Below are positions 10,598 through 64,000 of a stretch of DNA of 64,000 nt, piece by piece; the first letter of the stretch is position 1, and every line of letters starts with the position of its first letter. Origin of the DNA: Vulcanimicrobiota bacterium (GTDB lineage: Bacteria; Vulcanimicrobiota; Vulcanimicrobiia; Vulcanimicrobiales; Vulcanimicrobiaceae); assembly GCA_963754565.1 (NCBI GenBank), contig CAVWGL010000009.1:281546-345545 (forward strand), given 5' to 3'. The notes under the pieces were generated by a model. The model worked only from the letters and a program-made list of their open reading frames with translations. It made no database searches and had not been told where the DNA came from. The position numbers and the translations under genes are program-made.

Positions 10598-11100
10598 CTA
10601 CTCAGAGGCAGTTGCCTCTGGGTCGACCAATGACCGCAAGTACTTCTCCACGTGGTCGAAGCTCGCTTCGAGCCCATCGGTCTTGGTCATGTGGTCACGG
10701 CCAGCCTTGTCGCGGAACGCTAGCGTCGTTCGTCAGCGTCGTCACGCCGTCAGCTCTCGTGCAGCTCCACCGTCTCGACGGCCTCCGCATCCGGCCAGCC
10801 TTCGAACAGCCACGTCTCGACGGTCCGGGTCGGCGGCTCGACCTCCAGGTAGGTTCCGCGGAACGAGCACTCGGTTCCGTCCTCGGTCACGAAGACGATG
10901 TGGTAGTTCCCTCCGACGCGCAGGTCGATCGAGCACACCTTCATCTCCTCCCCGAATGGAGCGAACCATTTGCTCACGTGCTCCGGCTTCGTCAATACGT
11001 CGAAGACGAGTGCGATCGGAGCGTCGAACTCTCGAGTGATGACGATCTCGAGATCGTTCGGGAACTCGATGACTGCCGACCCATGCCGATTAGGTGTCAC
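10598..11100 (-). pseudogene. SRPBCC/AHSA1-family protein, frame broken near its 3-prime third
   Basis: GTG 11100 overlaps the ArsR stop (GTGA). The N-terminal 116 aa are intact to the stop at 10750. The typical C-terminus continues in other frames (...DGVTTLTNDA.. then LAFRDKAGRDHMTKTDGLEASFDHVEKYLRSLV), which implies 2 frame changes. Confidence 0.7.
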
Positions 11101-11465
11101 TGCTGCTCTCCTTGTCGTTGTAGCTCCTTGAGGTAGTCGTCCACCCGATCCAGCCGGTCGTTCCACGCCTGCTCGTACTTGGCCAGCCACTCTTGCAACG
11201 GCCGAAGGCGCGCGGGCTCCAGGCGGTACAGCCGACGACGCCCCTCCGCCCGGCACCTGACAAGTCCCACCTCCCTGAGCACCCGTAGGTGCTTTGAAAC
11301 CTGGGGCTGGGACATCGAGAGGTCGTCCACGATCGCCCCGACCGCCTTCTCGCCTGTGGCCAGCGCGTCCAGGATCTCGCGACGGTGCGCCTCGGCGATT
11401 GCGTTGAAGACATCCGAGGTCGTGGAAGAGCGGGCCACCGTCCAAATATATTCCGTTATCGGCAT
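11097..11465 (-). CDS. ArsR/SmtB-family transcriptional regulator
   Basis: VFNAIAEAHRREILDALATGEKAVGAIVDDLSMSQPQVSKHLRVLREVGLVRCRAEGRRRLYRL is a canonical ArsR wHTH. The ArsR + AHSA1 pairing is common. Confidence 0.9.
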   Translation of the reverse strand: MPITEYIWTVARSSTTSDVFNAIAEAHRREILDALATGEKAVGAIVDDLSMSQPQVSKHLRVLREVGLVRCRAEGRRRLYRLEPARLRPLQEWLAKYEQAWNDRLDRVDDYLKELQRQGEQQ

Positions 11466-12239
11466 ATGTCAAGCCTCGCTGGATCAAGAACCACTGGTTG
11501 CCTCCGGCCACGTCCACGGGTTCAGAGTTCGCTTCCCGGCCCGAGCAGGGTCCGGCGAAGGAACGTCCTCCAGTTAGCGCCGAGAGCCGAGGACGGGCGC
11601 TCTTGGCCTTCTCTCAGGCCTCGTTCATGGCGGGCAAACAATCGGTTCCGACACAAAAGTCATGGACCGCCACCGCCAGGCTCACCCAAGCTCTGCGTCC
11701 ACTCGGCCGGCCGAAGTCGACCTCGATCTCGCCCTCCAGCGAGCTCATTTCCGCTTACTGGGCGAGCTGTACCGTCAACGGCGGCCGATGGCGAAGCGCC
11801 GGAGGTGGCCGGCCGTGCGTACCGCGGACGTGGTGGTACCGATCACCTCCGCCCGCAGATGGCGCGAGGCCAGTGCCGGAGCCTCCTGAGTGCAGGTCTG
11901 ACTCACGTTCGTCGCTGAAAAACCTCGTCTGGGACTTACCCCGTTCGTTTCCCTACAGGATTAGTGGCGCTAAGGATGGGTCGTAGTACGAGCGATCCTG
12001 GGGGGTTTGGGATGCGCAAACCTTCTGAACTACGGAATTGGCGCTTATTGCCCTGGCGTGGCGACAACCACCGTCGGTCCCGACCACCAGCACATGTTGT
12101 TGTCGCCCTGATCACGGCCGCCGCCCTGTAATCCTCAATCGTGTAGAAAGTCCTAAACGCACGCCTAATCGACGAGGTGGTGCGAAACGGTCCCAGGTCC
12201 CTGCCGTATGTGCCCTCACGCCACGGGGTTCATCCGTTG

Positions 12240-13203
12240 TTACGGAAGGACGCGACGCAGGCCGTCGTGTCCGGCAATGGTCTTCCCCCTGAAGCTCGGC
12301 TCGGCGCGGCGCACCCATTCCGCCTCGCCGATGGCGCCCGGCTCGGCCGGCAGGTAATGGGTGAGAATGAGCTCCTTCACGCCGGCTTGCTCGGCCACTC
12401 CTCCAACCTCTGTGACGTCGGTGTGCAATCCGGCCATCCGCTCCAACTCGGCGCCTGTCGTCCCGTGGCGTTCGAGGTAGCCGAGGTCTGCGACGCAGTG
12501 GACCAGAATGTCCGCTTCCCGGGCGAGGGCGATGAGGTCGGTGTTAACGGTGGTATCACCGGAGAAAACAACCGAACCTTCGGCAGTGTCGAAGCGGTAG
12601 GCCAAGGCCGGCTCGGCGTGGCCATGGGTAACGGCGATGGCGGTGACCCGTAAGCCTCCATCGTCCACCACGACAACGGGCTGGGGGGACTGACCATCGG
12701 CCGGCGCCAGGACAGCGATGTCAGTGGCCCGCACCAGCTCCCCGGGATCGGGCATCCGCGGCATCGAGCGGCATTACGTTCAGGTGGTACGCGTAGCCGG
12801 CCAGGATACCTTCCACCAAGTCCCTGGTCCCCGGGACCGGTCGTTCGGGGTGGATCGTCGTCTGTCTGTGGAACGCGCTGTCACCGCTGGGCAGCGTCGT
12901 CGGTGGCCCGGGGCCGTAAACCTGCACGGGTGGCAGTGGCCCGTTCGCATTCGTGCGGACGCCCCACGGGTACAGCACCATGCCGGGAAGATCACCGACG
13001 TGGTCGGCGTGGAGGTGGGTGACAAATACGGCGTCCAGGCACCGAAAATCGAGGCCGGCGTTAACAAACGCAGACGGTGCCCCGCGGCCGCAATCAATGA
13101 CAAAAATGCGGTTGCCGACAACGAGCGCCGACGCGATCCCTCCTCGGCCGGCGACCGGCATGGGCGCCGCCGCCGTGCCCAGGAGGACCAACTCAGTGGT
13201 CAT
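12240..13203 (-). pseudogene. MBL-fold metallo-hydrolase (RNase Z/BN-like) split by one frameshift
   Basis: The N-terminal half (12721..13203) carries HLHADHVGD. The C-terminal half (12240..12764) carries ...VTHGH...FSGDT...LTHY. The frames meet within GCCGCGGATGCCCGATCCCGG near 12745. Confidence 0.75.
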
Positions 13204-13248
13204 GCCCGCTCAGCCGTGACAGTGTCGAGCCGCATAGAGATTTGCCTT

Positions 13249-15782
13249 TCAAACGTACCCGCGGCGTTCAGCGACCCTCAGCGCAACCCAGCCCAGCGGG
13301 ATTGAAATCCAGAAAGTCAGCAACCGGAATATAAGTACCGCTGAGGCAGCCGCTCCCGTGGGCATGCCCAAACCGGACAGGCCGGCCACCAGAGCAGCCT
13401 CGAGGGCACCCAGGCCTCCCGGGGTCGGCGCCGCGCTGGCGAGCAGGTTGCCGCCCATGTATATGGCCGCGACCTGGACGAACGGGAGCGTGCCGCCAAC
13501 CGCCCTGACGCACAGGGCAAAGGCCACCACCTCCGTAAGGGGCCAGCACAGTGCACCTGCGAGCGTGAGGGTGACGTGACGAGGGCTCTTGGCCACTTCG
13601 GCGATAGTGACGCCGGCTGAGCGGATGAACCCCCAGATTTTGTCGTGGAAAAACCGGCGCCCCGGCGGCGTGAGGGCGACGAGCCCCAGTCCGGCCAGCA
13701 CCACGGCCACCACGATGAATACCCACTCGTGGCCGGCCAAGCTGAAGTGGATGGGCGACTTTCGCCCTGCAGAGGCGAAGAAGGCGGCCAGAAGTACCAG
13801 GTTGGCGCGCGATGCTCGTAACTTGCTGCAGGCCAACGGACCCCGTTGCCGCCCCCGAGGAGACACCTGCTTTTTGCAAATACCGGAAACTGAGGGCCAT
13901 TCCGCCGACGCCATTAGGCGTGACCTTGTTGAGAAAAGAGCCGCCGAATTCGACGATATAAGTCGGCCGGAACGGTAAGTCCGCCGGGATGGCCCCGATC
14001 TGGAGAAGGGTGGCGAACACCAACACCACGAAGATGGCCGGGGAGGCGGCCAAGACCCACCACCAATCTGCGTCTTTCAGGGCATTAATAGCGGCGCCCG
14101 CGTTGGATAGCTGTGGGATAAGGACATAGATAACGACAAAGGCGCTCAGCAACGCCAACGTCCTTTTCCAGGTGAACCTTGAGAGCGGCTCCAGCTTGGC
14201 CGGCGGGGTCCCGGTGGCCGTGGCCACCGCCGTCCGCACGTCGCGGATCAGGTCGGGTCGACCTCCCGGCCGGAGCGCTGATTTTGCTCGCCCGCTGGCC
14301 GATTGGACCGACTGCGCCTGGTCATGGTGGCGCGCCCTTGCCCGCGTAGGGCCGGACAGGGCCAACGGCTGGACGTACCCCTCGGCGGCCTCGACGGCAG
14401 GGGCGCCGAGACCGGCAATGGCTGAAGAGACGGCCTTGTCCGCGCCAACCTTTACGGCCACCGAGACAAGTAGCTCGGCCACGTCCAACGACAGGTGGCG
14501 GTCCGGAGCACCCAGCTCAGCCAGGCCCAGCCCGATCAGCCACGCTTGTTCGTGGTCGTCGAGGATGATGTTGTCCGCTCGCTTAGTTGGCGGTGGGCGA
14601 GCCTGTGTTTGTGGAGGACGGCGACACTGTGCCACAGGTCCGCCAGGGCGGCATCTGGGATCTCTTCAGGTTCGAGGCCGTCCAGGGCCCGTCCGCCTAC
14701 GTCGACCCAGGCGAGGAGGGCGCCGCGAGTACCGCCTCTAGCGGCCACAGGGTAGGCCAGTACGGGTTCTGGCACCCGGGCACCGGCCCGAGCGGCCGTC
14801 ACCATGGCCAGCACGGCATGCTCAGCTGTCGACTGCACCGTCGTAGCAGCGTGGTCGTCCTTGCGCGTGCCGCACCATGACCGAGTGGTAAAACCTGTTA
14901 AGCCGAGCCCGGTCACGGTCCTCATCGGCAAATACTTTGAGCATGAGCGACGCACCGTCGCTGGTAGTGGCACGGAACATGTCCGGGCCAGATACGGGCC
15001 ATGACAATTGCGTCAAGGTGCGCAGTTCGACGCCGCACTCGTGCAGCGCAGAGACGATCTGTTGGGCGCCGGGCCGGTCCGTAGGGCGCCCCGAAGGATA
15101 GCGAGACCAGCGACCCGATGGTTATCCCCAGCGCCGCAGCGACGAAGGCATCGAGGGGCAGGAAGCCACCGACTACGACCTCGATCAGGACCGCACCACC
15201 CGTCACCCACCACAGGCCTCGCCGCCAACGCGGCGACAGTCCCGGCGTGACCACCGTGAGCATCGCCGTGGCGCCTGAAAGCCACGCCACTGGCGGGAAC
15301 GTGACATTGAAGACCCCTCCTCGTCCCGCTAACAGCTCGGCCCACGTTGGTGGCCGGGAGGGGGCCAGCAAGAGGTGTGAAACCAGCAGCGCCACAGTCG
15401 TGGCGGCGACGGCTGCCAGCAAGAGCCGCCAGGCCAAGGCCAGGCGCCGGCCTCCGACGACGATGATGACGCAGGCTGCGGGGAACAGCACGGCGACTAG
15501 CTGGGCCAACGCACTGAGCCAGTCGCGTAGAACGGACGGTAGCGTCACGATGGAGTCGAGCAGGTACCGCTCGGTCAGCCGCACGTGCACATGGTCGAGC
15601 GCCGCCACCAGACCGGCACAGACCAGGACGGCCAGAGCGATGAGAAGGCGCATCAGGTCGGACGCCCGACGCACGCCAGCTGCCTCCGGCAAGGATTCGA
15701 TGACGACGTCGTCGGGTGGCGGCGGAGTTCCCTGCGTCTGGGTGCCAGCTGGCCCTGGGCCAACTTGCTCCGGCTCCGACAT
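13249..15782 (-). pseudogene. large membrane protein (N-terminal TM domain, kinase-like domain, C-terminal LPG_synthase_TM/flippase-like domain), at least 4 frame breaks
   Basis: Pieced together from track ORFs 14922..16142, 14822..15016, 14536..14973, 13268..14635 and 13249..13914. The kinase-like catalytic loop is split across frames (HRLAHRQL | RADNIILDD). The C-terminus ...APTPGGLGALEAALVAGL...LIFRLLTFWI is typical of LPG_synthase_TM. The start is taken at ATG 15782 (MSEPEQV). Confidence 0.6.
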
Positions 15783-15901
15783 CAACGTCGCGACTGTCAA
15801 TGGCTCTGCCGTCTGCGTGTCGCTGCCTTGAGGAGACGGTCTGTCGGGCGAATGGTCCGTAAACGACAACAATAATTCCGGGTATGCAAGGATCACGGCG
15901 T

Positions 15902-16774
15902 ATGACGACGCTCGGACTGATTTTCTTGCCCCAACTGGCGCCCGAGCGGTTGCGCGACGTGACGCACGCCGCGGACACGGCTGGTCTCGACGAGCTCTGG
16001 CTGTGGGAGGACTGTTTCTTCGAAAGCGGGATCGCGTCGGCGGCTGCCGCTCTCGTGTGGACTGAACGGGTTCGTGTCGGCATCGGGCTGCTCCCAGTGC
16101 CTCTGCGCAACGTAGCCCTGACGGCGATGGAGATGGCGACATTGCAGCGGCTGTTCCCGGGCCGGGCCAGGATCGGTGTCGGGCACGGGGTGCAGTCCTG
16201 GATGGGGCAGGTCGGGGCTCGGGCTGGTTCGCCCCTCACTTTGTTGCGCGAGCAGCTCACCGCCTTGAGGGCCCTGCTCGACGGCCACGAGGTGACCACA
16301 AAAGGGCGTTACGTCACACTGGACCGGGTCAAACTGGACTGGCCGCCCCTTTCGTCTCCCGAACTGCTCGTTGGCGCAACGGCCCCCCTTTCATTGCGCT
16401 TGTCCGGAGAGTTCGCTGACGGGACGATCCTGACGGGCGGCACGACGCCCGAGGGCGTGCGGCGGGCCCGCGAGGTAGTCGAAGAAAGCCGGGCCGCGAG
16501 CGGGCGTACCGGGCAACATCACATCGTCGTATATTTGCTAGCTGCTACCGGTGCTGATGCAAGGGAGCGGCTGGCGCGCCAACGCCAGAAGTGGGGCATG
16601 GATCCCGGTCAGGCGCAGGGAGTGGCCGGCGACGCTGACGACCTGGCCCGAGCGGTGGAGGAGTGGGCCAGGGCAGGGGCGGACACGGTCGTCGTACAGC
16701 CGCTGGAGGACGAGCCTGACATGGCCGGCTTCGCTCGCTTCATTGCGGAGGAGGTCCGCCCCCTCGTGAGGTAG
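15902..16774 (+). CDS. LLM-class F420-dependent oxidoreductase
   Basis: MTTLGLIFLPQLAPERL...DELWLWEDCFFESG...IGLLPVPLRNVALTAMEMATL...GVGHG shows the luciferase-like monooxygenase pattern. It is intact. Confidence 0.85.
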   Translation: MTTLGLIFLPQLAPERLRDVTHAADTAGLDELWLWEDCFFESGIASAAAALVWTERVRVGIGLLPVPLRNVALTAMEMATLQRLFPGRARIGVGHGVQSWMGQVGARAGSPLTLLREQLTALRALLDGHEVTTKGRYVTLDRVKLDWPPLSSPELLVGATAPLSLRLSGEFADGTILTGGTTPEGVRRAREVVEESRAASGRTGQHHIVVYLLAATGADARERLARQRQKWGMDPGQAQGVAGDADDLARAVEEWARAGADTVVVQPLEDEPDMAGFARFIAEEVRPLVR

Positions 16775-16818
16775 TCAATCTCCTTTATGTACAAAGCTCT
16801 GATCGCTTCGGCCCACCA

Positions 16819-18515
16819 TTAGTGCCTGGTGATTTTGGCGATGCTCCGGGCTCGGCTCAGCCAGGTACGCGACCGGCGCCGGGCGATTAGCCGTTGCCAC
16901 GTGACTAGGCCCACGCCGGCGACGACCAACCCCGGCACAGAAAACGGCCCCACCATTGGGCTGGTCCGCCTCGAGATGAGCTGTGCGCCGGCCATCAGCG
17001 ATGCGGCGGTGACCAGTCCGTCTACGACGCGGTCGACGGCGTGGTCGGCGTCATGGACCCTGAAGTCGACCCCCACGTTCCCCGTGCGGACCTGGTCGAG
17101 GACGGCCTGGAGGTCGTTGGGCAAACCCGCAATGAAATGGTCCCAATTGCGGAACGCCCGGCTCAGCTGCCTTGCGATCCGCTTCGGGTCGAAGCGCTCG
17201 GCCAGCATGCGGGTGACGTAAGGGCGGAGCAGCTCCGTGACCCGTACTTCCGCGCCGACTTCCCGGCCCAGGCCCTGCAGGCTGATCAGCACCTTGAAGA
17301 AAAGAGCCAGGTCGGCCGGCAGGACGAGCTTGTTCCTGTGCAGGACCTCCATGCCGCTGACCAAAATGGCGCTGATATCGAGATGAGAAAGGTCAGCCAG
17401 GAGGTAGCGGTCAAGCCATAGTTCGATACTGGCCCGGAGCTGGGCCATGTCCACACCAGGCGGCGGGGTGGTCATTTCCACGATGACGTCGACGACTGAA
17501 TCGTCGTCGCGAGTGCCGACTGCGATCACCAGGTTCTCGAGCTGCCGCCGCCGCTGGCTCGTTAGCCGGCCCACGTCGCCGAAGTCCAGGATGGCCATAT
17601 GGTCGCCGTCGGGGAGTAGGAAGTTCCCCGGGTGTGGGTCGGCATGGTACAGGCCGTCACGGAAGATCATCTCCAGGTAGATGTCGGCGGCGCGGTTTAC
17701 AAGCTCGTCGACCTCCCACCCCGCCGCCTCGATGCTGGCCCGGTCGGTGAACGGGAACCCTGAGATCATTGCCATGGTCAGCACCCTCTGGCCCGACAAG
17801 TCCGGGTAGGGCGTAGGGATAACAACATCCGGTTCATCGGCGAAATTGGCTTGGAACCGTTGCAGGTTGGACAGCTCTTGGCGCAAGTCGACGGCGGCGT
17901 CCATCATTGCCGCGAACTCACTCACGACGACCGTCGGGCGTAGTTGGGCCAGCTCCGGGTCCTCTTCTTCCATGTACTCGGCGAGGGCTCGCAACAGCTC
18001 GACGTCCTCCCGCACCTTGCTGTCCGCCCCCGCGTGGAGAACTTTGACGGCCACGGCGGTGCCATCTGCCAGTGCCGCCCGGTGTACCTGGGCGACCGAG
18101 CCGGACGCAAAAGGCTCGTCCTCGAATGAACCGAAGAGCTCGGAGACGGGCCGGCCCAACTGCGCCTCGACGGTGGCCCGGCCTACACCCGGCGGGTCGG
18201 CCGGCACCCTGGCCTGCAGCTTGGCCAGCTCTTTGGCCACATCGTCGCCAACGATATCGGGGCGCAAGCTCAGCATTTGTCCGAACTTGATGAACGTCGT
18301 CCCCAGTTCGGTCAACGCATGACGCAATCGCTCACCCGGTGTAGCCTCGGCTTCCTCCGGGATACGGCCCGGTGGACCATGCTTTCGATGGGCGCAACCG
18401 CCGCGATCCCCTGGCCACGCGCCGCCCATGACGCCAGGCCATGGCGGACGAGGACACTCACGATCTCGTTGAGGCGCCGGCGATGCTTTACGAGCGTGCT
18501 TGCAACATCAGTCAT
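16819..18515 (-). pseudogene. ABC1/UbiB-family atypical kinase, one frameshift near the N-terminus
   Basis: The main frame carries ...LRHALTELGTTFIKFGQMLSLRPDIVG...GSVAQVHRA...HADPHPGNF...LDFGDVG. The N-terminal 67 aa (MTDVASTLVKHRRRLNEIVSVLVRHGLASW...) lie in another frame, switching near 18400. Confidence 0.8.
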
Positions 18516-18717
18516 GACCGGGCCTCCAGTCGTCGCCGTGTTCGCACTTCAGGATAGACGGGCGCGTACGGCGGAGTCTCCGGCGGTCCCTGACCGGCCG
18601 CGAGCAGGCCGTGGTGGGCGAGTGGCCTCGCAACCGGCCTCCCAACTGGCGTCTCAACTGGTCGGCTGGCGCCCGGGCACCGTAAGCACCCGTCTTCAGC
18701 TCCCGCCGAACACCCAG

Positions 18718-18990
18718 TTACAGTTCTCGGCGCTCGAAGCTGAACACGCCGGCAGCGAGGATAGCCAGGAACCAAACTGCTACCCACAAAAGGTAGGCCC
18801 ACGACGGCGCCGACTGCGCAAAGAACGGGTTGCCCTTGTCCGACGATTCCGCCAACGCCCGGGCCAGGAATGATTGCGGTTCGAGATAATAAATGGCGCC
18901 ATGCCAGAGGGCATCGGTTGGGAATATGTAGCGGGACACCTGGCCGACGGTCTGCAATTCGCTGATGTTGAACGTGGTACCGAGCGCTCG
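18718..18990 (-). pseudogene. C-terminal fragment of an ABC-2-type transporter permease
   Basis: Only about 90 codons are open (...TTFNISELQTVGQVSRYIFPTDALWHGAIYYLEPQSFLA...NPFF...WFLAILAAGVFSFERREL). No upstream TM segments or credible start were found. Confidence 0.4.
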
Positions 18991-19031
18991 TGCACGAAGT
19001 GCTCAGCAGTTCGACAAATGCTTTCTCTACT

Positions 19032-19358
19032 TCACGGCTCCGGCACGCGGGGACTACGCTGCTTGTTCCGTTCGCCCCGGCGTTCGCGGCCGCGCACGGC
19101 GTTGAGCGCCAGGTGGGAGGCGGCTATGCTGGCCCATGCTGCAGCGTGGCCTGAAGAGTACGGCTCAGAGAAGCGTCGTTGGGCGGCGATGAGCACTTCC
19201 TGGGCCACATCTTCGGCCAAGTGGACGTCCCGGACGACGTTATAGGCGATCCGGACGACAACCGGGTACTGAGTTCGGAAGAACTGCTCGAAGCTGCCTG
19301 GCGCAGCGCTGGCCTCAGGCCGTCGGCTATGCGGCATCAAGCTGGTCCCCATCCTCAC
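19032..19358 (-). pseudogene. ECF sigma-70-family factor truncated after region 2
   Basis: FEQFFRTQYPVVVRIAYNVVRDVHLAEDVAQEVLIAAQRRF...WASIAASHLALNAVRGRERR is region 2. No region 4 follows, and the ORF stops about 70-80 aa short of typical ECF sigmas. Confidence 0.55.
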
Positions 19359-20055
19359 GGTCTATTAAGCACCGCCCGGGCCGTTTGTGACACTGCTCCA
19401 GCTCCGCCAGCCCGAGGTCACCCGGCGGCTGCCAGAATGGAGCGGTGAGCTCGCCCCGCCGGCCCCGCAAGGAGGCAGACCGCGCCCCTCGGGCGCCGGC
19501 CGCAAATCCTTCTCCGAAAGGCGACATGCCGGCGGGCCGTGGCGACGGGCGCCCGGGTCGCCTCACGAAACAGGTTGTTTTTTTGATGCTTATCGGGTGG
19601 CTCGTGGTCGTGATATTGGTCGTGGTGCTTATTTCGGCTACGTGAAGCGGTCGCCTTCGCCGCTCGACGACTGGCCGCCGCGAGACGACGTCGGTCCCGG
19701 TGGTCGCAACCTCGCCGTCATTACGGGCCCGTCAGCGATGGCTCTCCTCGGCGTGCTTTCGGCGGTGATGGATCTCCATCATCAAGAAGTGCCCCGCACA
19801 AAAGGCCGGCCACGAAACCGGATGCGCCCCACTCCAGCCGCAAGTCGACACCGCGGCTGAACACGATGGCCAGAACTACGACGACTATGACGATGAGGAC
19901 GATGACATGGGGGCGGAAGCGGTCCATTACGCGGCTCCTTCCAGGATTCGTCCGTTCTACACCCTGGGTAGCTTCCCCGGCCATCATTGGGTACTGTCGG
20001 CGTAGGCCGGGTGTTCTTTCCTTCTCCACCCGTCGTGGCATAGTCGCCTGTTAGA

Positions 20056-20697: not shown

Positions 20698-20738
20698 GTT
20701 GGGGCGAGCGCGTCCGGGCCGATGGACGAGGAGGCGGG

Positions 20739-22723: not shown

Positions 22724-22724
22724 T

Positions 22725-54781: not shown

Positions 54782-54854
54782 TCCCCCCGCCGTCCCTGCC
54801 TTCCCCGCTGTCCCTGCCAACCGGGCCATCCCCGTCCGGCCATAAGGCCGTTGG

Positions 54855-55856
54855 TCATGCCGAGGCCCCGACTCGCCCCACGCCGGCGAAATCAGGCCAT
54901 GCGAACGATGTGCGCATGGGGAGTTCCTCCACGACGGCACCCGTATAAGGGGCGTCGATCATCAGGCCCGCCCCCGCGTAGAGGGCAACGTGTTCGACCT
55001 CTCCCGTCCCGTGCGGGCCAGCGAAGAAGAGAAGGTCACCCGGCCGGGCCTGGCTAAGCGGGACGGGGATGGTAGCCCGCTTCTGGTCCGCCGCGTTGCG
55101 CGGGAGCATAATGCCGTAGCGGGCGAAGACCGAATAGACAAGGCCTGAGCAGTCGTAACCGAAACCGCTTGTCCCGCCCCAAAGATAGGCGAGCCCGATG
55201 AAAAGCCGCGCCTGGGCCACGATGGCGCTACCGGTTACGGTCCCCGAATGCACGGGGGCGGCGGCGTTTTCGGCGATGGCGCCCTCGCTCCCGCCGGGAA
55301 GGCCGACAAAGACATAACCATTGGCCACCGACAACTCGGGTAGCTCGGTGGCATAACTGAGGAGCAGCTGGCGATTTCCGACGATCCCGTCTTTCTCGGT
55401 GTACAGCCAAGCCGACGGCACCGAAATGATGACCGCCCGGCGCGCCTCCGGCGGCGGTACGGCGTTCAGCTGCGCGGTCGGCACCCAGCCGATGACGCCG
55501 TTCGGGAAGTGGTTGCCGGTTTGGCTCGGGATTTCCACCCGGCTCCATTTGCCGCTCTCAGACAAGACGACGACTTTGCGGCCGTACACCATCTGAGTAT
55601 CGATGCGGCCGTGCAAACCCAGCCGGCCGACGACGTTCATCGAGTCGAGCCATTTCCCGATGTGGGCGGGCTCCGCCAGCGCTGGCCCATCGAGTGGGCG
55701 AGGGCTAGTGGGGTGGATCCAAACAGTGGCCACGGAGACCTGGACCCAGGCCAGCGGTCCTTGGTCGGGCGCAGATGCCACCGCGGGGACAGTCCCGATG
55801 GCCATCAATAGGGGGGCGAGCGCCCCGGCCAGGACGAGTTTCAGGACGCGGATGAC
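54855..55856 (-). CDS. secreted NlpC/P60 (C40) peptidoglycan endopeptidase with SH3-like N-terminal domains
   Basis: The C-terminus ...LAYLWGGTSGFGYDCSGLVYSVFARYGIMLPRNAADQ...GDLLFF...HVALYAG is the canonical C40 catalytic region. A signal-like VIRVLKLVLAGALAPLLMAIGTVPAVASA is present. The true start codon is unresolved. Confidence 0.8.
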   Translation of the reverse strand, partial: VIRVLKLVLAGALAPLLMAIGTVPAVASAPDQGPLAWVQVSVATVWIHPTSPRPLDGPALAEPAHIGKWLDSMNVVGRLGLHGRIDTQMVYGRKVVVLSESGKWSRVEIPSQTGNHFPNGVIGWVPTAQLNAVPPPEARRAVIISVPSAWLYTEKDGIVGNRQLLLSYATELPELSVANGYVFVGLPGGSEGAIAENAAAPVHSGTVTGSAIVAQARLFIGLAYLWGGTSGFGYDCSGLVYSVFARYGIMLPRNAADQKRATIPVPLSQARPGDLLFFAGPHGTGEVEHVALYAGAGLMIDAPYTGAVVEELPMRTSFAWPDFAGVGRVGASA

Positions 55857-55932
55857 CCAAGTGTCGCGCGTCCGGTTCTCCCAATGGTGCCTTCGGTGGC
55901 GGCGGTCGCAGCGAGACGAGGAGTTGGCCCTC

Positions 55933-57092
55933 TCAGGGCTGCCAGCGGTAACACCGCAGCGGCTCGCCCAGCAACGCCTCGTCCACTTCGATGCCGAGCC
56001 CGGGGCCGGTGCCAACACTGCCCCAGCCGTCCTTCGAGCGTGGTTCGTGCCCGGCCAGGTGCTCGAGAGTCCAGTCGTTCATGAACGACGCCGCGTAAAA
56101 CGCCTCTGGAGAAGTACTGGCCGCCAGCTGGCTGACGGCGGCGGTCGTGAGGTCCCCGCCCCAGGTGTCTTCGATGGTCAGGCGCAGGCCAAGGACCTCA
56201 GCCAGCTCACGAATGGTGCGGGCCTCGGCCAGGCCCCCGACTCTGCTGATCTTCAAGTTGACGGCGTCCATCACGCCGGCCTGATGGCAACGCAGAAGGG
56301 AGGCGACGTCAGTGATGACCTCGTCCAGGACGAACGGCATCGACGTCCGCTCGCGCAGCACAACGCACTCCTCGATCGTCGGGCACGGTTGTTCCATCCG
56401 CACTCGAGGTAAGTCCTCGAGCATCCTCACCGCCAACGTGGCGTCCTGGAGCCGCCAGCCACCATTGGCGTCGGCGACGATCACGTCCTCGTCCCCTGTC
56501 GCCTCTACTACGGCTCGCACGCGAGCGACATCGTCACCCGGGGCCCCGCCGATCTTCAACTGGAAGCGGTGGATGCCGGACGCTCGCGCCCGGGCGGTGA
56601 ACTCGGCCATCTCCCGCGGAGGGCCGAAGGGACAGCGACATAGAGGGGGAAGCGTTCCTGGCGCAACCCCCCGAGGAGCACATGGCACGGGACGTCAATG
56701 ACCTTCCCGAGCAGGTCCCAGCAGGCCACCTCGAGCACACTTTTGGCATATCCGTGGCCGCGCAGGGCGAGCTCCATTGCGTCAGCGATCGCCGACAGGC
56801 TGGTCACGTCGACACCGAGCACTGCCGGCCCGATCTCCTCCAGAGCGGCGATCACGCCGCCGGCAAAACCGGGGAGGTAAGTAGGGCCTAGCGGGCACAC
56901 CTCGGCGTACCCGGTGACACCGCTTCTGGTCGTCGCGCTCACGACGACGCTGGTCAGAGTGGAGATCTCCCGGCCCTGGGACATGACGTAGGTGCCATGC
57001 GCGTAAGTCAGGTGGTAGGAGTGCACCCGTACCTCGGCGATCCGGCTGCCTTCGTCGCTCTCTATCACGGATCCCCTCCTGGTCCAGCTCAC
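55933..57092 (-). pseudogene. mandelate racemase/muconate-lactonizing (enolase superfamily) enzyme, one frameshift
   Basis: The N-terminal capping domain (56556..57092: ...AKSVLEVACWDLLGKVIDVPCHVLLGG) is in one frame. The barrel domain (55933..56688: ...FQLKIGG...VADANGGW...MEQPC...DE...) is in another, switching near 56640. Confidence 0.75.
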
Positions 57093-57316
57093 CGACCCGT
57101 TGTCGACGGGCCACTCAAAGACACGCTTTGCGGAACTTGTCTAATCATTACATAACTCGTGAGGCAACGTCCCGTCCACTGAGCTCCATCGGTCGACGGG
57201 GCCGGCGGCGGCGACGGTGCGCCGTACTAAGATTCCTGTGGTCATTCCACAACTATCCGACAGAGCCGGACCTTACCGGCTGACCGTCTTGCTGTGGCAT
57301 CAGCCGTAATCGACTG

Positions 57317-57346
57317 TTGACAATGTACTGACTTGACTGATAACTT
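57317..57346 (+). promoter_or_regulatory. sigma-70-like promoter candidate
   Basis: TTGACA at 57317..57322, then a 17-18 nt spacer, then ATAACT/TAACTT. It lies in an AT-richer region ~35 nt upstream of the 57378 uORF. Confidence 0.3.
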
Positions 57347-57377
57347 ACTCGTGATTGTTCGGACGAAGGGGGGACCC

Positions 57378-57482
57378 ATGAGATCTCACGTGCGGGGGGA
57401 GGCTTCAGTAACGTCTCTCCAAGCGTGGTCCGGGGTCGGAAACTGCCCGCCGAGGTCGAAGACGCCGTCCTCTAGCCGATGA
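57378..57482 (+). CDS. 34-codon upstream ORF overlapping the sulfatase start (ATGA)
   Basis: GAAGGGGGG precedes the ATG at 57378. The peptide is MRSHVRGEASVTSLQAWSGVGNCPPRSKTPSSSR. Its TGA at 57480..57482 overlaps the sulfatase ATG at 57479..57481. Confidence 0.25.
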   Translation: MRSHVRGEASVTSLQAWSGVGNCPPRSKTPSSSR

Positions 57483-58867
57483 GCAAGCTCAATTGCGTCC
57501 TCGTTATTGCTGATGACATGGGTTATGGCGACCTCGGCTTGTTCAACGAGGGCCGGTCCCGGACGCCGAACCTCGACGCTCTCGCCCACGAGGGCATATG
57601 CCTGACCCAGCATTATTCGGGCTCGCCCGTGTGCGCGCCGGCCCGAGCCTGTCTTCTGACCGGCAAGTACCCCCACCGAACAGGTGCCATCGACACTCTT
57701 CAGGGCCGAGGGCTTGACCGTATCGGTCTTGGCGAACGAACAATTGGGGACATCTTTTCTGCCGGGGGGTACCGTACGGGCCTGATCGGGAAATGGCACA
57801 ATGGGGCGCTCGACCCTCGCTTCCACCCTAACGCCCGCGGGTTCGAGGAGTTCATTGGTTTCTGCGGGGGCTACTCCGACTATTACGATTATTATCTGGA
57901 CATAAATGGGACGGAGAAAAAAGGTGATGGCCGCTATCTAACCGACGTACTGACGGACCACGCCATCGAGTTCGTACGTAAGCACCGAAGCGAAGCATTT
58001 TTGCTGGTACTCGCCTACAATGCTCCGCATTTTCCGATGCAGGCGCCAGAAGCTGTTGTGCAGCGGTATATGGAAATGGGCCATACGCGGGGTGCCTCTC
58101 TGACCTACGCCATGATCGAGGTCATGGACGCCGGCATCGGCCGGTTGCTGACCGAGTTACACGACTTGGCGCTGGCCGACGACACTGTTTTCCTTTTCAC
58201 CAGCGACAATGGCCCATACCTGGGTGAGGTGGCTGGCGTGAGCCTGGACCGCTTCAACTTCGGGCTGCGCGGCGCCAAGCATTACGTGTTCGAAGGTGGC
58301 GTCCGGGTCCCGACAATAGTCCGTTGGCCCGCCGAATGGCCGGGAGGCATAGCGGTGGACCACGTGCTCCATTTCGCCGACTGGCTTCCCACGCTGTCCC
58401 GCCTCGCCTCCGTACCGTTGCCCGGCGAGGGCGACCTCGATGGTCAAGACGTTGGCAGTGCGTTGGCGGGCGGGCCGATGCAGACCTATCCCCGGCGGTT
58501 CTGGCAGAACAACCGCTATGCTCCGCACGTCGAGGGTAACGCCGCGGTCCGCCATGGCGATTGGAAATTGGTGAGGCCCCCGATCCCCGAGTTCATGAAG
58601 GTCACGGGTTCTGACCGAATTATCGACCGTGCCCTCAACCTGCACCAGGAAGGGCGAATACTGGAGGTCGACGCCTCTCCTCTGCCCGAGTTCGAGGAGG
58701 CACGCCTGCCACCGCCCATGCTGTTCGATATCGCCGTCGACCCGCTCGAACAAAACGATTTAGCCTCGGCCCATCCGGAAAGGGTGGCAGCCATGACCGC
58801 CGACCTCGAGCGATGGTTCGAGGAGGTGGAACACGACCGCCAGCACAGCTTCTTAGCTTCGGGCTAA
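57479..58867 (+). CDS. Cys-type (formylglycine-dependent) sulfatase
   Basis: VLVIADDMGYGDLG...SPVCAPARACLLTGKYPHRTG carries the C-x-P-x-R signature, followed by GKWHNG. Intact, 462 aa. Confidence 0.9.
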   Translation: MSKLNCVLVIADDMGYGDLGLFNEGRSRTPNLDALAHEGICLTQHYSGSPVCAPARACLLTGKYPHRTGAIDTLQGRGLDRIGLGERTIGDIFSAGGYRTGLIGKWHNGALDPRFHPNARGFEEFIGFCGGYSDYYDYYLDINGTEKKGDGRYLTDVLTDHAIEFVRKHRSEAFLLVLAYNAPHFPMQAPEAVVQRYMEMGHTRGASLTYAMIEVMDAGIGRLLTELHDLALADDTVFLFTSDNGPYLGEVAGVSLDRFNFGLRGAKHYVFEGGVRVPTIVRWPAEWPGGIAVDHVLHFADWLPTLSRLASVPLPGEGDLDGQDVGSALAGGPMQTYPRRFWQNNRYAPHVEGNAAVRHGDWKLVRPPIPEFMKVTGSDRIIDRALNLHQEGRILEVDASPLPEFEEARLPPPMLFDIAVDPLEQNDLASAHPERVAAMTADLERWFEEVEHDRQHSFLASG

Positions 58868-58955
58868 GAGGAGCCCCCAAACCAAGTCCCGCTTCCGGGA
58901 ACCAAGGTCAACCCGCAATATCCAGGAAAAATCCCCTAAAGGAAGGAGTAATACT

Positions 58956-60616
58956 GTGTACAACAGGCAGAAGCGCTCAACAGCGGTACCGCCCGCCCGA
59001 CGGCCACGGCCGGCCCGAAGGTGTGTGGCACTGATAGCGTGCGCCACGACCGCGTTCGGCGTTGCCGGGCTGGGAGGGGTCGCCAGTGCCACACCCTCGC
59101 GGGTGGCGGCGCAAAGCAGTTCCGGCCCCGTGCTGACCTGGGGCCAGGCCGCTGACCCGGGCTCGCTCTGGAACGCCACTGATTTCAATGCCACCGACGG
59201 CGCCCCTATCATGTCCCTCGTCAACCAGGGCCTGCTGACCTTCACGGCCAATAACCAACTCGCACCGGCGCTGGCGTCCTCGTGGAAACAGGTGACGCCG
59301 ACCGATTATGTGTACACCATACGTAAGGGCGTCCGCTTCTCCGACGGCGACCCGCTGACACCCCAGGACGTTGTCTACTCCTTCGACGTGCAGCGCAACC
59401 CGGCGGTGGCCTCGGACGAGTCGACCTTCTTCGCCGACATCAAGAGCGTCACCGCGTCGGGGGACAATGTCACCGTACTGCTCAACAAACCGGACGCCAT
59501 CTGGACCGATATCCCCGCTCACGAGGGTGGCTACATATACGAGCAGAAGAGCCTGCAGGGGCACCTGAAAAACTACGGGACGCCGACGGTGCTGCCGGTC
59601 GGGACCGGACCGTACATGGTCCAGAGTTACACCACCGGGTCCAACATAACGTTGGTCCGGAACCCGTACTACTGGGGACCGAAGCCTTACTATAGCGAAA
59701 TAGTCTTCGACATAATCCCGGACCCGCAGACCCTTTTCCTGGCGCTTGAAGCGGGCAAGGTCGACGGGACGTTCGATGTGCCTACGGGCAACCTGAAGAC
59801 CTGGCAGTCCGTTTCGTCCATACATATAACCAAGTACCCCGCCGACGGGTTCTTCGGGCTGACGTTGGACCAAACGGAAGCTCCCTTCAACAATATCCAC
59901 GTGCGCAAGGCGATCGCTTATGCGACCAACCGGGCCGGGATCGCAGCCGCCGTCTTTGGTAACACGGCCGTCGTGGCCAAGACACTGGACGACCCGCGGA
60001 CGTTCAAGGGCATCCTGTCTGCCACCGAGGTGAACAAGTTGTTCGGCCCATCCCGGCTTATTCGTACAATATCGCCGCGGCCAAGGCGCAAATGGCCGAA
60101 TCGCCGGTACCCAAGGGGTTCACCACGACGCTCAACGTTGCCGGAGATTGCGAGCAGTGCGCTACGATCTCGGAGGCGATGCAGCAGACGCTGGCCCAAA
60201 TCGGTATAAAACTAAATTTGAAGACAATGCCTGGCCCAGCGCGTTTCCAGCTTATCTTGAAGCACGGCCCGGACCTGGGTATCCAGTTGATTGGTAACCT
60301 CGCAGACGTACCAAACCCGATCGAGCTGCCCTGGCTCTATTACGCCAGCGACCAGGCCGTCAAAGGTGGGAACAATTCGTCGAACTTCGACAATGCGACG
60401 GTTGACAAGATCATAAATAACGGGATCGTCGGCACCAATGTTGCCCTGGTGGCGAAAGACGCCCTAGCGGCCGAGACGATCGCCGCTAAGGACGCCGCCA
60501 TGGACCCGATGGTGTACCTCGACGACGTAGCAGCGACCCAGGGCAATCTGACGCTCTCCAACCCGGGTGCGTTCTTCATGGACTACCAGTGGATCAACCA
60601 GCTCCACCGGTCCTGA
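58956..60616 (+). pseudogene. ABC transporter substrate-binding protein, family 5 (peptide/nickel type), one frameshift
   Basis: A signal-like N-terminus is followed by ...LVNQGLLTF...YTIRKGVRFSDGDPLTPQDVVYSF... The C-terminal 174 aa are in another frame, switching near 60048 at GGCCCATCCCGG. Confidence 0.8.
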
Positions 60617-60651
60617 TATAACTCCTATAGATGTTCCGGGAACAAAGTGAA

Positions 60652-60747
60652 GGAGAGACGGCGGCCGCTCGCTCCAGGAGCTTCAGAAAGGTGCCCGCGT
60701 GCATGGCTTTCGTGGCGATAACAGGAGCGAGCGGCCGCCGTCTCTCT
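60652..60747. repeat. long inverted repeat (23-bp GC-rich arms, 48-nt spacer) between the SBP and permease genes
   Basis: GAGAGACGGCGGCCGCTCGCTCC (60653..60675) is the exact reverse complement of GGAGCGAGCGGCCGCCGTCTCTC (60724..60746), with G/T closing positions at 60652 and 60747. Confidence 0.85.
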
Positions 60748-60902
60748 CACGTAGTTCCCGAAGCCTCTGTAATGCGGGGTAGGTCTGGAGGTAGTAGTAG
60801 GTGGGGAAGCCGGGGCGCCGGGATGCCGCCAGTGCCCCGCCTCCGTCGGTCCCTGGCCCACCTCGAGGGGCGTGGTTGAGCCACGGCCCTGGAGGGTGAC
60901 CT

Positions 60903-61901
60903 GTGGGCCGTAGCCGGTTCTGGCGTTACTTCGCCCATCGGCTGCTGCTACTTGTGCCGTTGGCCTTCTTTGTGTCGCTCTTCGTCTTTTTGTTGTCGTC
61001 GATGGTGCCAGGAGGGCCGGTGGCGGCGATTGTAGGGAGCCATCCACTCAGTGAGACGACGATCCAGGAGCTGCGCCAGAAGCTGGGCCTGAACCTCCCG
61101 TTATATGAGCAGTACTGGCACTGGCTGCGCAACGTCTTGTTCCATTTCAACCTCGGCCAGTCGTACATCACGGGCCAGTCGGTCTCGCGAGCTATTGGGT
61201 CGAGAGTCGGCATAACGCTCACGGAGAACATTGGCGGTATCGTCTTCGCCTTGCTCCTGGGCATCCCGCTGGGTGTCCTGGCCGCGCTGCGCCGCGGCGG
61301 CAGGTTGGACCGCCTGGCCGTTGGTTTCACTATCTTCGCGGGCAATTCCCCCTCGTACGTCCTCGCTCTGCTTATGTTGTTCGTCTTCGGTCTGAAACTA
61401 GGGTGGTTCCCCTTGTTCGGAGCGGGCTCCAGCTCGATAGGCGACAGGCTCCATCACCTGGCCCTGCCGATCATCGTCCTGGGCATCGGGGGCATGGCAC
61501 TCATGATGCGCATCACCCGGGCGGCCATGTTGGAGCATCTAGACCAGGATTACGTCCTCTTTGCTCGGGCGCGCGGGTTGTCGAGCTGGAGGGTGATAGT
61601 AGAGTACGCCTTCCGCAATTCCCTCATCCCCATACTTACGGCGTTCGGGTTGCTGCTGATAGGCGTGCTCACCGGTTCGGCCTTCGTAGAGACGGTCTTC
61701 GGGTTGCCCGGACTGGGGGCGCTACTGGTTAATGCCGTCGAACAGGTGGACATCCCGATGATCCAGGGCCTCGTGTTGGTGGTGGCTATCTGGATCGTGA
61801 TCGCCAACATAATCGTCGACCTGATCTATGCATTGGTCGACCCGCGCGTTGGCTTTGGCCGGGCGGCGCGGTCTGATGTCAGTCGTGGCCGCTACCGTTA
61901 G
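60903..61901 (+). CDS. ABC transporter permease (DppB/OppB-like)
   Basis: RYFAHRLLLLVPLAFFVSLFVFLL...DQDYVLFARARGLS...IVDLIYALVDPRV. Intact, 332 aa. Confidence 0.9.
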   Translation: MGRSRFWRYFAHRLLLLVPLAFFVSLFVFLLSSMVPGGPVAAIVGSHPLSETTIQELRQKLGLNLPLYEQYWHWLRNVLFHFNLGQSYITGQSVSRAIGSRVGITLTENIGGIVFALLLGIPLGVLAALRRGGRLDRLAVGFTIFAGNSPSYVLALLMLFVFGLKLGWFPLFGAGSSSIGDRLHHLALPIIVLGIGGMALMMRITRAAMLEHLDQDYVLFARARGLSSWRVIVEYAFRNSLIPILTAFGLLLIGVLTGSAFVETVFGLPGLGALLVNAVEQVDIPMIQGLVLVVAIWIVIANIIVDLIYALVDPRVGFGRAARSDVSRGRYR

Positions 61902-61942
61902 GCCGAAAGCGCGGTACGCGATGGCTCCCCACGGCGCCGTTC

Positions 61943-62743
61943 ATGGTGTACCTGGCGTTTGGGTTCCTGCTTTTCATCCTCGTTTTGGCCCTGTTCGGCA
62001 GCGTCATTTTCCCCGGGTCGCCCAAGACGCAAAACCTGTTCCTCACCTCCCAGCCCCCGAGCGCGAAGTACTGGTTTGGCACGGACGACCTCGGGCGCAA
62101 CGTCTTTGTGCGTGTCGTTGCCGGTTCCCGGACCGCCCTTATTGGCCCGACGTTTATCGCCGTTACTGGCCTGATCGGCTCCAGCATCTTTGGCATTGCC
62201 GCCGGCTACATCGGCGGGGCCGTGGACATGACCATCTCCCGGGCGGTCGATTTCATGTTCTCGCTGCCCGGTCTGTTGATCGCCATCGTCGTCGTGTCGG
62301 TGGTGGGAGGCGGTTACGTCATCGCCGTGTTGGTACTGAGCATCCTCAATGTCCAGGGGGACATCAGGATCGTCCGGAGTGCGGCGGTGAAGCAGCGCAG
62401 CCTGGCCTACATCGAGTCCGCTCGGACACTGGGCGTGCCGCCCAGCCGGATCATGTACCGGCACATTTTCTTGAACATCTTGCCCATCCTGGTGGCTGAC
62501 CTCGCCCTGGACTTTGGCGGGGCGCTGGTAGCCCTGGCGGGCCTGGCCTTCCTCGGTCTAGGTGCGCCCGCCGGGAGCACCGAGTGGGGTTCGATGCTGG
62601 CGGACGGCCAGTCCCTCCTGTTCCAAAACCCGGCCGCGGCTCTCGGCCCCGGCCTGGCGATTGTCTTGTTGGCTGTGAGCTTCAGCCTGATCGGCGACTG
62701 GGTCTACGAACGATTCGCGAAGTCGGTCCGTGGTGACCGATAG
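61943..62743 (+). CDS. ABC transporter permease (DppC/OppC-like)
   Basis: ...YWFGTDDLGRNVFVRVVAGSR...YIESARTLGVPPSRIMYRHIFLNILP... Intact; the start could lie further upstream. Confidence 0.85.
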   Translation: MVYLAFGFLLFILVLALFGSVIFPGSPKTQNLFLTSQPPSAKYWFGTDDLGRNVFVRVVAGSRTALIGPTFIAVTGLIGSSIFGIAAGYIGGAVDMTISRAVDFMFSLPGLLIAIVVVSVVGGGYVIAVLVLSILNVQGDIRIVRSAAVKQRSLAYIESARTLGVPPSRIMYRHIFLNILPILVADLALDFGGALVALAGLAFLGLGAPAGSTEWGSMLADGQSLLFQNPAAALGPGLAIVLLAVSFSLIGDWVYERFAKSVRGDR

Positions 62744-64000
62744 CCCCAATACGCCGCCCGCAGGAAATTTGCTGAGCGTCCGCAACCTGGTTGTGGAGTA
62801 CCAGGGGGCCGGCGGCGTGAAGCCGATCGTGACCGGCATCGACCTCGACGTGAACAACGCCGAGACGGTCGGGATCGTGGGTGAGTCGGGCAGTGGGAAA
62901 TCGCTAAGCGCCCGTGCCATCATGCGGCTGCTGCCCTCGGGCGTACGGTCCTCGGGTTCAGCCATGTTCCGCGGCAGGGACATCTTCTCCTGTCCTCGAG
63001 GCAGATGACGCAACTGCGGGGTTCACAGGTGTCCATGCTGTTCCAGGACCCCTTTACCATGCTGAACCCGGTGTTTCGCGCCGGCCGCCACATTGAAGAG
63101 GTGCTGCGCTCCCGGAGCCGTGATCGCCCCTCCAGGTCAGCCGCCCGGGTCGAGGCCCAACATCGCCTGGACGAGGTTGGCATCACAGATCCCGATGCCA
63201 GCCTGCGCTACCCCTTCCAGCTCTCGGGTGGCATGCGCCAACGTGTCGCTCTAGCCGCCGCTCTCGCCGGCGACCCGGAGCTATTGATCGCCGACGAGCC
63301 GACAACTGCGCTGGATGTAACGACCGAAGCGGAGATCCTGAAGCTGCTCAAGCAAGTCCAGGAACAGCGGGGGATGGGGCTCGTACTGATCACGCACGAC
63401 CTGCGGATCGCCTTCAGTGTGTGTGAGCGCATCTATGTCCTGTACGCCGGCTCGTTGGTCGAGATGGCGCCGTCGTCCCGGCTGCAACAGGAGCCATTGC
63501 ACCCGTATTCGCTGGGTCTGATGCTTTCTGAGCCCGCGGCTGACCGCCGTCAGGCCACCCTTACAAATATCCAGGGTTCGGTGCCATCTCCATCTGAGGT
63601 GAGCGGGATGTGCGCCTTCGCCCCCCGTTGTCGCTGGGCCAATGAGGCATGCCGGTCCGCCAAGCCCGCTCTCACCCAGCTACGTCCAGGAAGGTACTCC
63701 GCTTGCATTCGTGTTGACCAGATCGGCGCCGAGATGGCGGGGATGCGGGTATCGCTTCTCCGGGGCGCCCCGGCGGTGGCGCCCTCGAGCACCGCTGACC
63801 CACTGCTCAGAGTCGATGATGTCTACAAGGTCTTCAACGACAAGACACGACGGGCGGTAAAGGCTCTGTCGGGAGTGACCATCGAGGTCGGGCACAATGA
63901 GAGCGTCGGCTTGGTCGGGGAGTCCGGTTCCGGTAAGTCGACGTTAGGGCGGTGTATCGTCGGCCTCGAGACGGCAAGTACCGGGCGGATAGTGCTTGAC
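62730..64000 (+). pseudogene. ABC transporter ATP-binding protein with two fused ATPase domains (DppD/DppF-like), one frameshift, 3-prime partial
   Basis: Walker A GESGSGKS at about 62880. The frame changes near 62983 (FRGRDI | LLLSSRQMTQLRG...). Then come LSGGMRQRVALA, LLIADEPTTALD and the Cys-rich oligopeptide C-terminal motif. A second Walker A (GESGSGKST) lies near 63920. The ORF continues past the window end. Confidence 0.85.

Follow-up and report, generated by a model that had tools for sequence, protein, structure and literature searches.

The window analysed here is a stretch of 64,000 nucleotides from contig C9 (positions 281546–345545) of G000, a metagenome-assembled genome (MAG) of a Vulcanimicrobiota bacterium (3.07 Mb in 11 contigs, 63% G+C, completeness 93.9%, contamination 0.06%). 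It carries, among others, genes for a UbiB/ABC1 kinase, HemY and HemE, a HelD-like helicase, an Eis-like acetyltransferase, a TrwC-type relaxase and an ABC importer, many of which cannot be read through in a single frame. A sequence-only reading of this DNA had counted some 20 genes with about 30 frame breaks, and had proposed either assembly errors or genome decay as the cause. The breaks are confirmed to be present in the deposited sequence: we find 31 frameshifting insertions or deletions (indels) of one or two nucleotides, 19 of them insertions and 12 deletions; they affect about 18 genes in the stretch from 10.7 to 63 kb (Table 1).

Reading frames were followed with a seven-state Viterbi tracker based on codon usage, its model trained on long open reading frames (ORFs) of G000; the frames were stitched at the tracker switches and the stitched products scanned against Pfam. 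Exact indel sites were taken from nucleotide alignments with conspecific contigs, which were retrieved through matches to HemE, UbiB and the enolase-family enzyme. The analysis as a whole rests on sequence comparison and statistics. Two simpler measures had limited use: the length over which the old frame stays open after a switch is an imperfect classifier of switches (it misses 24164 and 43100) and served for density maps only, and in-frame stops in the high-scoring segment pairs of tblastn are uninformative because stop-to-stop query ORFs run past gene ends.

Almost all the junctions noted previously are recovered by the tracker, and conserved motifs do continue in the neighbouring frame, with single Pfam domains crossing the junctions in the stitched translations. 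Some details change. The frame changes at 20694, 33687, 35773, 36496, 39080, 54896 and 62727 fall between different domains and are simply borders between adjacent genes. Alignment to conspecific contigs gives three indels in hemE where two had been proposed, and the GT4 gene, credited with at least one break, has two. Both ABC permeases had been regarded as intact, but a concealed pair of insertions at their junction changes the end of permease 1 and masks the true start of permease 2. The supposedly intact sulfatase appears to contain a compensating pair (58695/58707), as does the N-terminus of the enolase-family enzyme (57073/57096), both seen in the comparison with contig L131 alone, at 92% identity. 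The uneven distribution of breaks that had been described is real; it follows a foreign segment of the contig and not gene function, and some of the genes called intact hold hidden or compensated indels.

Table 1. Interrupted genes and related features of the window. Positions are those of the window; in the last column a plus sign stands for added bases.
Feature	Position	Strand	Change in the window
Acidimicrobiales-like terminal segment of C9, foreign to the MAG	1..64000 (window all inside)		
SRPBCC/AHSA1 gene	10312..11100	-	1-nt insertions 10727, 10753
MBL-fold hydrolase	12243..13209	-	1-nt insertion (extra G) 12760
LPG_synthase_TM and kinase-like region	13252..15900	-	insertions 13807, 14405, 14579 (two bases), 14859, 15082
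UbiB/ABC1 kinase	16822..18548	-	1-nt deletion 18358 (G4 to G3)
Alpha/beta hydrolase	20737..21544	+	1-nt deletion 21227
Purple acid phosphatase	23660..25241	+	deletion ~23645; insertion within 24164-24172 (AAACCCC)
GT4 glycosyltransferase	34401..35779	+	1-nt deletions 34462 (C4 to C3), 35528 (G3 to G2)
Methyltransferase	35770..36508	+	1-nt insertion 36280
hemY (protoporphyrinogen/coproporphyrinogen oxidase)	37586..39080	-	1-nt insertions 38946, 39003
hemE (uroporphyrinogen decarboxylase)	39069..40100	-	insertions 39700, 39837; deletion 40063
HelD-like helicase	40257..42679	+	1-nt insertions 40869, 41196
Eis-like GNAT acetyltransferase	42632..43910	-	1-nt deletions 43101, 43710
TrwC-type relaxase	47443..50141	-	1-nt insertions 48066, 48633 (also 47472 near its end)
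Secreted protein	53280..54313	+	frame change ~53891 (deletion)
Enolase-superfamily enzyme	55936..57092	-	1-nt deletion 56622
SBP_bac_5 solute-binding protein	58956..60616	+	1-nt deletion 60044 (G3 to G2)
ABC permease junction	61860..61920	+	+2 (61871), +1 (61913), by alignment to L131
ABC ATPase	62730..63750	+	frame change ~62942 (deletion)

Other contigs of the same species bear on the nature of the breaks. All these genes are intact in the JGI contigs L039, L043 and L046 (94–96% nucleotide identity to the window) and L131 (92%), which we infer to be of short-read origin. In the long 'contig_N' assemblies from ENA (L045, L127, L130, L238 and a single 327-kb contig that figures as L044, L128 and L239), which are 93–99% identical to the window, the genes are broken too, but elsewhere. 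At each junction, window and conspecific contigs differ by exactly one base. From 34 to 44 kb there are 12 events; nine of them, each a 1-nt indel compared with three to five conspecific contigs per site, are confined to the window (36280, 38946, 39003, 39700, 39837, 40063, 40869, 41196 and 43710), and the remaining three (34462, 35528 and 43101) are held in common only with long-read contigs. L043 and L046, at 93.4% identity farther from each other than from the window, are free of net frameshifts in coding DNA: the indels between them are multiples of three or intergenic. Between L040 and L041, one related population recovered from two samples, identity is 99.66%; gap openings (25) outnumber mismatches (15), and the split genes differ between the two. 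Since the breaks differ between long-read assemblies and are absent from the short-read contigs, they track the kind of assembly and not the lineage. A search with the stitched HemE likewise finds intact proteins at 98% identity in JGI metagenomes, among them one of 353 residues whose 90%-identity cluster has 27 members; a scan of metagenome contigs with UbiB returned only relatives at ≤79% identity, none of them conspecific.

We conclude, with a probability of about 0.88, that the breaks are single-base (rarely two-base) consensus errors of long-read metagenome assembly, located in an Acidimicrobiales-derived end of C9. The affected genes are in all likelihood functional in the living organism, and none of the broken genes should be called a pseudogene.

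A lesion in rpoB, outside the window, provides a control. This gene, which lies on contig C2 and is single-copy in G000, breaks near model position 66; one extra A is present at C2:51325 (ATTCTC[A]GAGTTC), at about codon 120 of ~1,300, outside any homopolymer. Four relatives are without this base, and the ORF of ~1,300 aa is open in all relatives. As a real frameshift in rpoB would be lethal, the G000 assembly demonstrably holds errors of exactly this kind. Several other genomes of the genus, in one to six contigs, combine 50–70% completeness with an rpoC in 3–8 frame pieces, a signature of the same kind. G047, G084, G051, G036, G064 and G078 (1–20 contigs, 50–70% completeness, with rpoC in 3–8 pieces in the first three) are uncorrected long-read assemblies, each representing its species. 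As a separate observation, rpoB and rpoC lie apart in this genus, which is unusual for bacteria: they are at C2:51165–54850 and C6:86090–89563 in G000, and hundreds of kilobases apart in complete relatives (455 kb and 864 kb on C1 of G081; 3.02 Mb and 0.29 Mb on C1 of G030).

Errors of this kind are far denser in the window than in the bulk of the genome. As a native reference we used 2.4 of the 2.48 Mb of the complete relative G081, whose ORFs were aligned to G000 by tblastn. Native contigs carry 15–25 G081 orthologues per 20 kb and, in 1.586 Mb of coding DNA, at most 68 candidate frameshifts (0.043 per kb, an upper bound), spread uniformly across contigs. In the window the 31 events fall within 52.4 kb, giving 0.59 per kb, 13.8-fold the native density (binomial p = 2e-22). 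A general effect of GC content or contig ends was considered and rejected, the Spearman coefficient of 0.11 and the ~2-fold higher density near contig ends being too weak for a 14-fold contrast.

The difference follows the origin of the DNA. Judged by G081 orthologues, C9 is native from 0 to ~260 kb, with no such orthologues beyond that point; DNA matches to five relatives end at 277.1 kb, and positions 1–10000 of the window match the DNA of none of the five. The ProS encoded in the window (31436–32854) is only 52–55% identical to the ProS of five relatives, whereas the RpoB and RpoC of those relatives are 93–98% identical; a second ProS on C6 (212911–214116), at 80–92% identity to the relatives' enzymes, is the native copy. 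The best database relatives of the window are proteins from Acidimicrobiales MAGs. Collinearity with Acidimicrobiales-type conspecific contigs spans 5237–62764 of the window; L132, a related but more distant contig at 79% identity, still matches as far as C9:348.8 kb. The bulk of the genome is different: the TonB-dependent receptor of G081 with its CarboxypepD_reg domain, for example, has a 77%-identity orthologue on contig C8 of G000. The native/foreign junction falls in C9:277.1–286.8 kb, and the contig ends, at 356.8 kb, within foreign DNA. The terminal 70–80 kb or more of C9 is thus best read as Acidimicrobiales-like DNA joined to the contig of an unrelated organism, the likely cause being a chimeric contig, and the indels are dense in the window because it lies within this foreign terminal stretch. 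Foreign origin also explains the near-empty blastn comparison with G010, the closest relative in the genus, for which a reading of the window as a variable region was dropped.

Other parts of G000 also stand out. Contig C3 (the whole 53 kb), most of C11, C8:400–480 kb and C1:320–400 kb are almost without G081 orthologues, and C3 has a raised density of frameshift-like switches; they may represent accessory or mobile DNA, or more DNA of foreign origin. Close to the junction, C9:275–277 kb has short matches at many sites in the genomes of the relatives.

The most likely route to these errors would begin with a fragment of a low-abundance Acidimicrobiales genome that became joined chimerically to the native contig. 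If this fragment was covered at low read depth and/or by reads of mixed strains, polishing could thereby have left about 0.6 indels per kb. Clean and dirty blocks alternate, one of the clean ones being 25–34 kb, where 7.6 kb of coding DNA is free of events (P about 0.01), and insertions and deletions are grouped by direction in blocks of several kilobases (10 runs against 15.7 expected, p = 0.014). Such clustering by direction is expected if few reads dominate the local consensus, and both patterns would fit a consensus that is locally thin. A variant of the artefact, in which two or more strains 95–97% identical were collapsed and polished together and low depth played no part, seems to us less likely than not: at least five conspecific populations at 92–98% identity exist in related samples and many indels lie beside a mismatch (36280, 35528, 39700, 43101), but many others have no mismatch nearby (12760, 13807, 39837, 40869).

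The sequence context of the indels is mixed. The homopolymer link suggested earlier applies to the 12 deletions, which adjoin 2–4-nt G/C runs, as in ubiB, GT4 and the solute-binding protein; it fails for 13 of the 19 insertions, which lie outside any run and add a base unlike both neighbours, mostly G/C beside CG or GC. Most insertions are single G, C or T bases at non-repetitive sites. Runs of ≥3 nt occupy 16% of window positions. The link is weak overall.

Several points weigh against attributing the breaks to long-read consensus error in a foreign fragment. The prevalence of non-homopolymer insertions is unlike the textbook Nanopore error pattern. Coverage, per-site read support and the chimeric join are reached by inference, as is the sequencing platform of G000 and the ENA contigs, for which the guides are contiguity, contig naming and indel-rich differences. 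The three shared deletions (34462, 35528 and 43101) could be systematic errors or real shared variants. Each reference is 3–8% away from the window, and none of the identical strain was found. GC content (0.637 against 0.638) and principal component analysis of tetranucleotides also fail to set the foreign segment clearly apart.

Genes that had truly lost their function should carry other marks of decay. No premature stop occurs in ~5,000 aligned codons, with frames taken from the intact references, and the lesions comprise the 31 one- or two-nucleotide events, longer indels being multiples of three or intergenic. Pairwise ratios of nonsynonymous to synonymous divergence (dN/dS) are 0.09–0.28 in broken genes and 0.14–0.26 in most of their intact neighbours (full range 0–0.44). 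We also scored changes private to the window, defined as sites at which the window departs from a base common to all conspecific contigs, by the corresponding ratio pN/pS. Broken genes have 28 synonymous and 10 nonsynonymous private changes and no stop (pN/pS 0.133), intact genes 33, 13 and none (pN/pS 0.139). The broken genes in this set contain eight private frameshifts. We generously assumed that each indel is accompanied by five neutral substitutions, a ratio guided by general knowledge of bacterial pseudogenes. A neutral phase that produced eight indels should then have left 29 or more nonsynonymous changes; the observed number is 10 (P(≤10 | 29) = 4e-5), no excess over what selection alone explains. 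A pN/pS of 0.13 in broken and 0.14 in intact genes therefore leaves no neutral phase in which the eight private frameshifts could have arisen.

We accordingly consider genuine pseudogenisation, that is, genome decay with ~18 genes inactivated by real frameshifts, to be very improbable. The breaks are truly in the deposited sequence, several genes have two to five each, some neighbouring genes are intact and three deletions are common to other contigs of the species, all of which decay could accommodate. It would not account for the lack of nonsense codons, for a pN/pS of 0.13 on the window branch, as in intact genes, or for indels that are nearly all unique to this assembly while the genes are intact in three independent short-read samples and the other long-read assemblies of the species are broken elsewhere. 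Moreover, hemE, hemY and ubiB are single-copy in G000, and hemE would have been hit three times and hemY twice, with a like lesion in rpoB. Of the two causes proposed in the sequence-only reading, assembly error is thus borne out by intact short-read alleles, by long-read breaks that differ, by the absence of nonsense codons and relaxed selection and by the broken rpoB; decay is not supported, in view of the absence of stops, the pN/pS values equal to those of intact genes and the assembly-specific indels.

A related proposal is that an Acidimicrobiales block of ~70–100 kb, with its TrwC relaxase and genes resembling a type IV secretion system (T4SS), was integrated across phyla and is now decaying. 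The foreign segment is indeed physically joined to native DNA in one contig, the relaxase and T4SS-like genes lie inside it, and the housekeeping gene for ProS is duplicated. Yet C9 never goes back to native sequence, the junction ORFs at C9:276–287 kb, scanned with Pfam, include no integrase or transposase, no tRNA is present there, and several Acidimicrobiales contigs of 225–330 kb have the same gene order, relaxase included, as a conserved chromosomal arrangement. Purifying selection acts on all genes on the window-private branch, again without stops, and leaves no post-transfer neutral phase. We give this proposal as little credence as decay in place, and slightly less to the narrower idea that the 70–100 kb are a real and very recent acquisition, mobilised by the relaxase and T4SS-like genes into an unrelated soil bacterium, in which at least some frameshifts are genuine early decay. 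The lack of a neutral phase, the assembly-specific pattern and the absence of stops in effect exclude decay, whether in situ or after transfer. Programmed frameshifting or transcriptional slippage that restores the proteins in vivo has nothing in its favour beyond the existence of the frame changes, and its probability is negligible: the intact orthologous alleles exclude it, same-species orthologues being single-frame at the sites, no common slippery motif occurs among the indel contexts, and ~30 unrelated genes would all need recoding.

The conjugation-like genes themselves occupy 46000–53100 of the window (the TrwC relaxase, a DUF6112/TrbC-like protein and two large T4SS-like ORFs). In several Acidimicrobiales contigs (L040, L044 and L132) this module is found beside LPG_synthase_TM, a sigma factor, csrA, the Eis-like gene, helD and hemEY, and it looks like a fixed chromosomal feature of that lineage.

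Support for consensus errors can be followed gene by gene. At the start of the series, the AHSA1 domain of the SRPBCC gene is cut at a frame end, and both added bases are missing in L127, L128 and L130. Lactamase_B crosses the junction (12753) in the MBL-fold hydrolase; L127 and L128 are without the extra G and have an intact product of 328 aa. The LPG_synthase_TM domain crosses 13806, and every insertion in this region is missing in L127, L128 and L130, those at 14859 and 15082 in L129 also; at 15082 the gap of L130 is placed 5 nt off, at 15087. Intact forms of this region vary: in the comparison of L238 (2389–5031) with L239 (2408–5046), one conspecific contig has a single 880-aa ORF and two have ORFs of 546 and 332 aa, which meet at one base. 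UbiB has its N-terminus in another frame, and four conspecific contigs contain the extra G and an intact 565-aa ORF. Abhydrolase_1 crosses the junction (21235) of the alpha/beta hydrolase, for which L127, L128 and L130 have the base and an intact 269-aa product. In the purple acid phosphatase, Metallophos crosses 24164 and stop codons narrow the second indel to 9 nt. The sole reference here is the poor contig L130, which is too error-ridden to serve alone, and events backed by L130 only (24.1–25 kb) were dropped.

Further along, Glycos_transf_1 crosses 35542 in the GT4 gene; short-read L043, with an intact product of 445 aa, and L045 have both deleted bases, and long-read L044, like the window, is without them. 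The methyltransferase is intact (244 aa) in L043, L044 and L045, which are without the added base. In hemY, Amino_oxidase crosses both junctions, and both bases are missing in five of five conspecific contigs; in hemE, positions 4–345 of the 346 in URO-D are matched across two junctions, and again five of five contigs differ from the window at the three indel sites. Neither of the bases added in helD occurs in L043, L046, L044 or L045, and the product is intact in short-read L046 (792 aa) and in L042 (864 aa). Acetyltransf_9 and Acetyltransf_17 cross one junction each in the Eis-like gene, which is intact (418 aa) in short-read L046; its 43101 deletion is common only to the window and long-read L044 and L045. 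For the relaxase, L044 is the single reference; it is without the inserted bases, and the ORF there is open for >908 aa.

The weakest call is the break in the secreted protein, a frame switch of the codon model only, with an ORF overlap of 120 nt; this protein has no Pfam match and no close reference. In the enolase-family enzyme, MR_MLE_N and MR_MLE_C lie in different frames (junction 56611), and short-read L131 has the extra base and an intact product of 378 aa. SBP_bac_5 crosses the junction (60046) in the solute-binding protein, where L131 has GGG and an intact 553-aa product. ABC_tran (2–137 of 137) crosses the junction in the ABC ATPase, a gene without a close nucleotide reference.

Two segments of the window vary between strains or contigs. 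About 520 nt at 20119–20640, encoding only a C-terminal fragment of an FAD-dependent oxidoreductase, are missing in the conspecific L127 and L128, and this fragment, in contrast to the other 'broken' genes, may be what is left of a real gene. The gene for the purple acid phosphatase (23592–25050) is present in L130 but missing in L127 and L128, and is therefore strain-variable within the species. Repeats were seen in two places. The MFS gene (28566) is immediately preceded by a tandem repeat of a 69-bp unit (28357–28533; 2.6 copies, 93% matches), each copy repeating the Shine-Dalgarno-like GAAGGAGG and the first codons of the MFS gene (ATGCGCAGCTTCGCC...). On contig C2 (31600–36000), ORFs judged by eye to be phytoene/squalene-synthase-like, amine-oxidase-like and squalene-hopene-cyclase-like are interrupted by short in-frame repeat arrays, in which the peptides ACHPERSAAESKDES (~14 copies) and VILSEAERRPTG recur.

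The biology of these genes is ordinary, and the result is a practical warning about this reference genome. HemE, HemY, UbiB, HelD, the Eis-like enzyme, the ABC importer and the other affected products should be annotated as intact; every pseudogene call in the window would be wrong. G000 is the sole genome for its species in the collection searched, and at least 70 kb of it comes from another phylum-level lineage. This part is invisible to the marker-based contamination estimate of 0.06%, and inferences on gene content, horizontal gene transfer or metabolism would be contaminated by it. Conspecific short-read contigs, branch-private pN/pS, nonsense codons and essential genes together give a recipe for telling error from decay without reads.

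Among known systems, decay of the Mycobacterium leprae type combines nonsense mutations, deletions and frameshifts with relaxed selection; essential genes escape it, and close relatives share it. The window resembles it in that many adjacent genes are interrupted, some by several lesions; the lesion mix, the relaxed selection, the sparing of essential genes and the sharing are all lacking. Unlike an integrated conjugative element or genomic island, the foreign segment of C9 has neither host DNA on both sides nor, at C9:276–287 kb, an integrase, transposase or tRNA. It is closer to chimeric or contaminated MAGs, since C9 joins two unrelated organisms and the ProS marker is duplicated, yet marker contamination is 0.06%; no repeat or mobile element was found at its junction. 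In Nanopore MAGs, indel errors inflate pseudogene counts and depress marker-gene completeness, more so at low coverage, and short-read or frameshift-aware correction removes them (PMC8103633, PMC9262707). Short-read polishing has been required for the repair of indels (PMC9262707), and PMC12313526 describes a pipeline of Flye and one round of Medaka for soil metagenomes; that G000 or the ENA contigs stem from the latter project is only a lead. The window departs from such long-read MAG artefacts in its mostly non-homopolymer insertions and in the ~14-fold concentration of errors in one foreign segment, and agrees with them in the essential feature, indels of 1–2 nt that split otherwise conserved ORFs.

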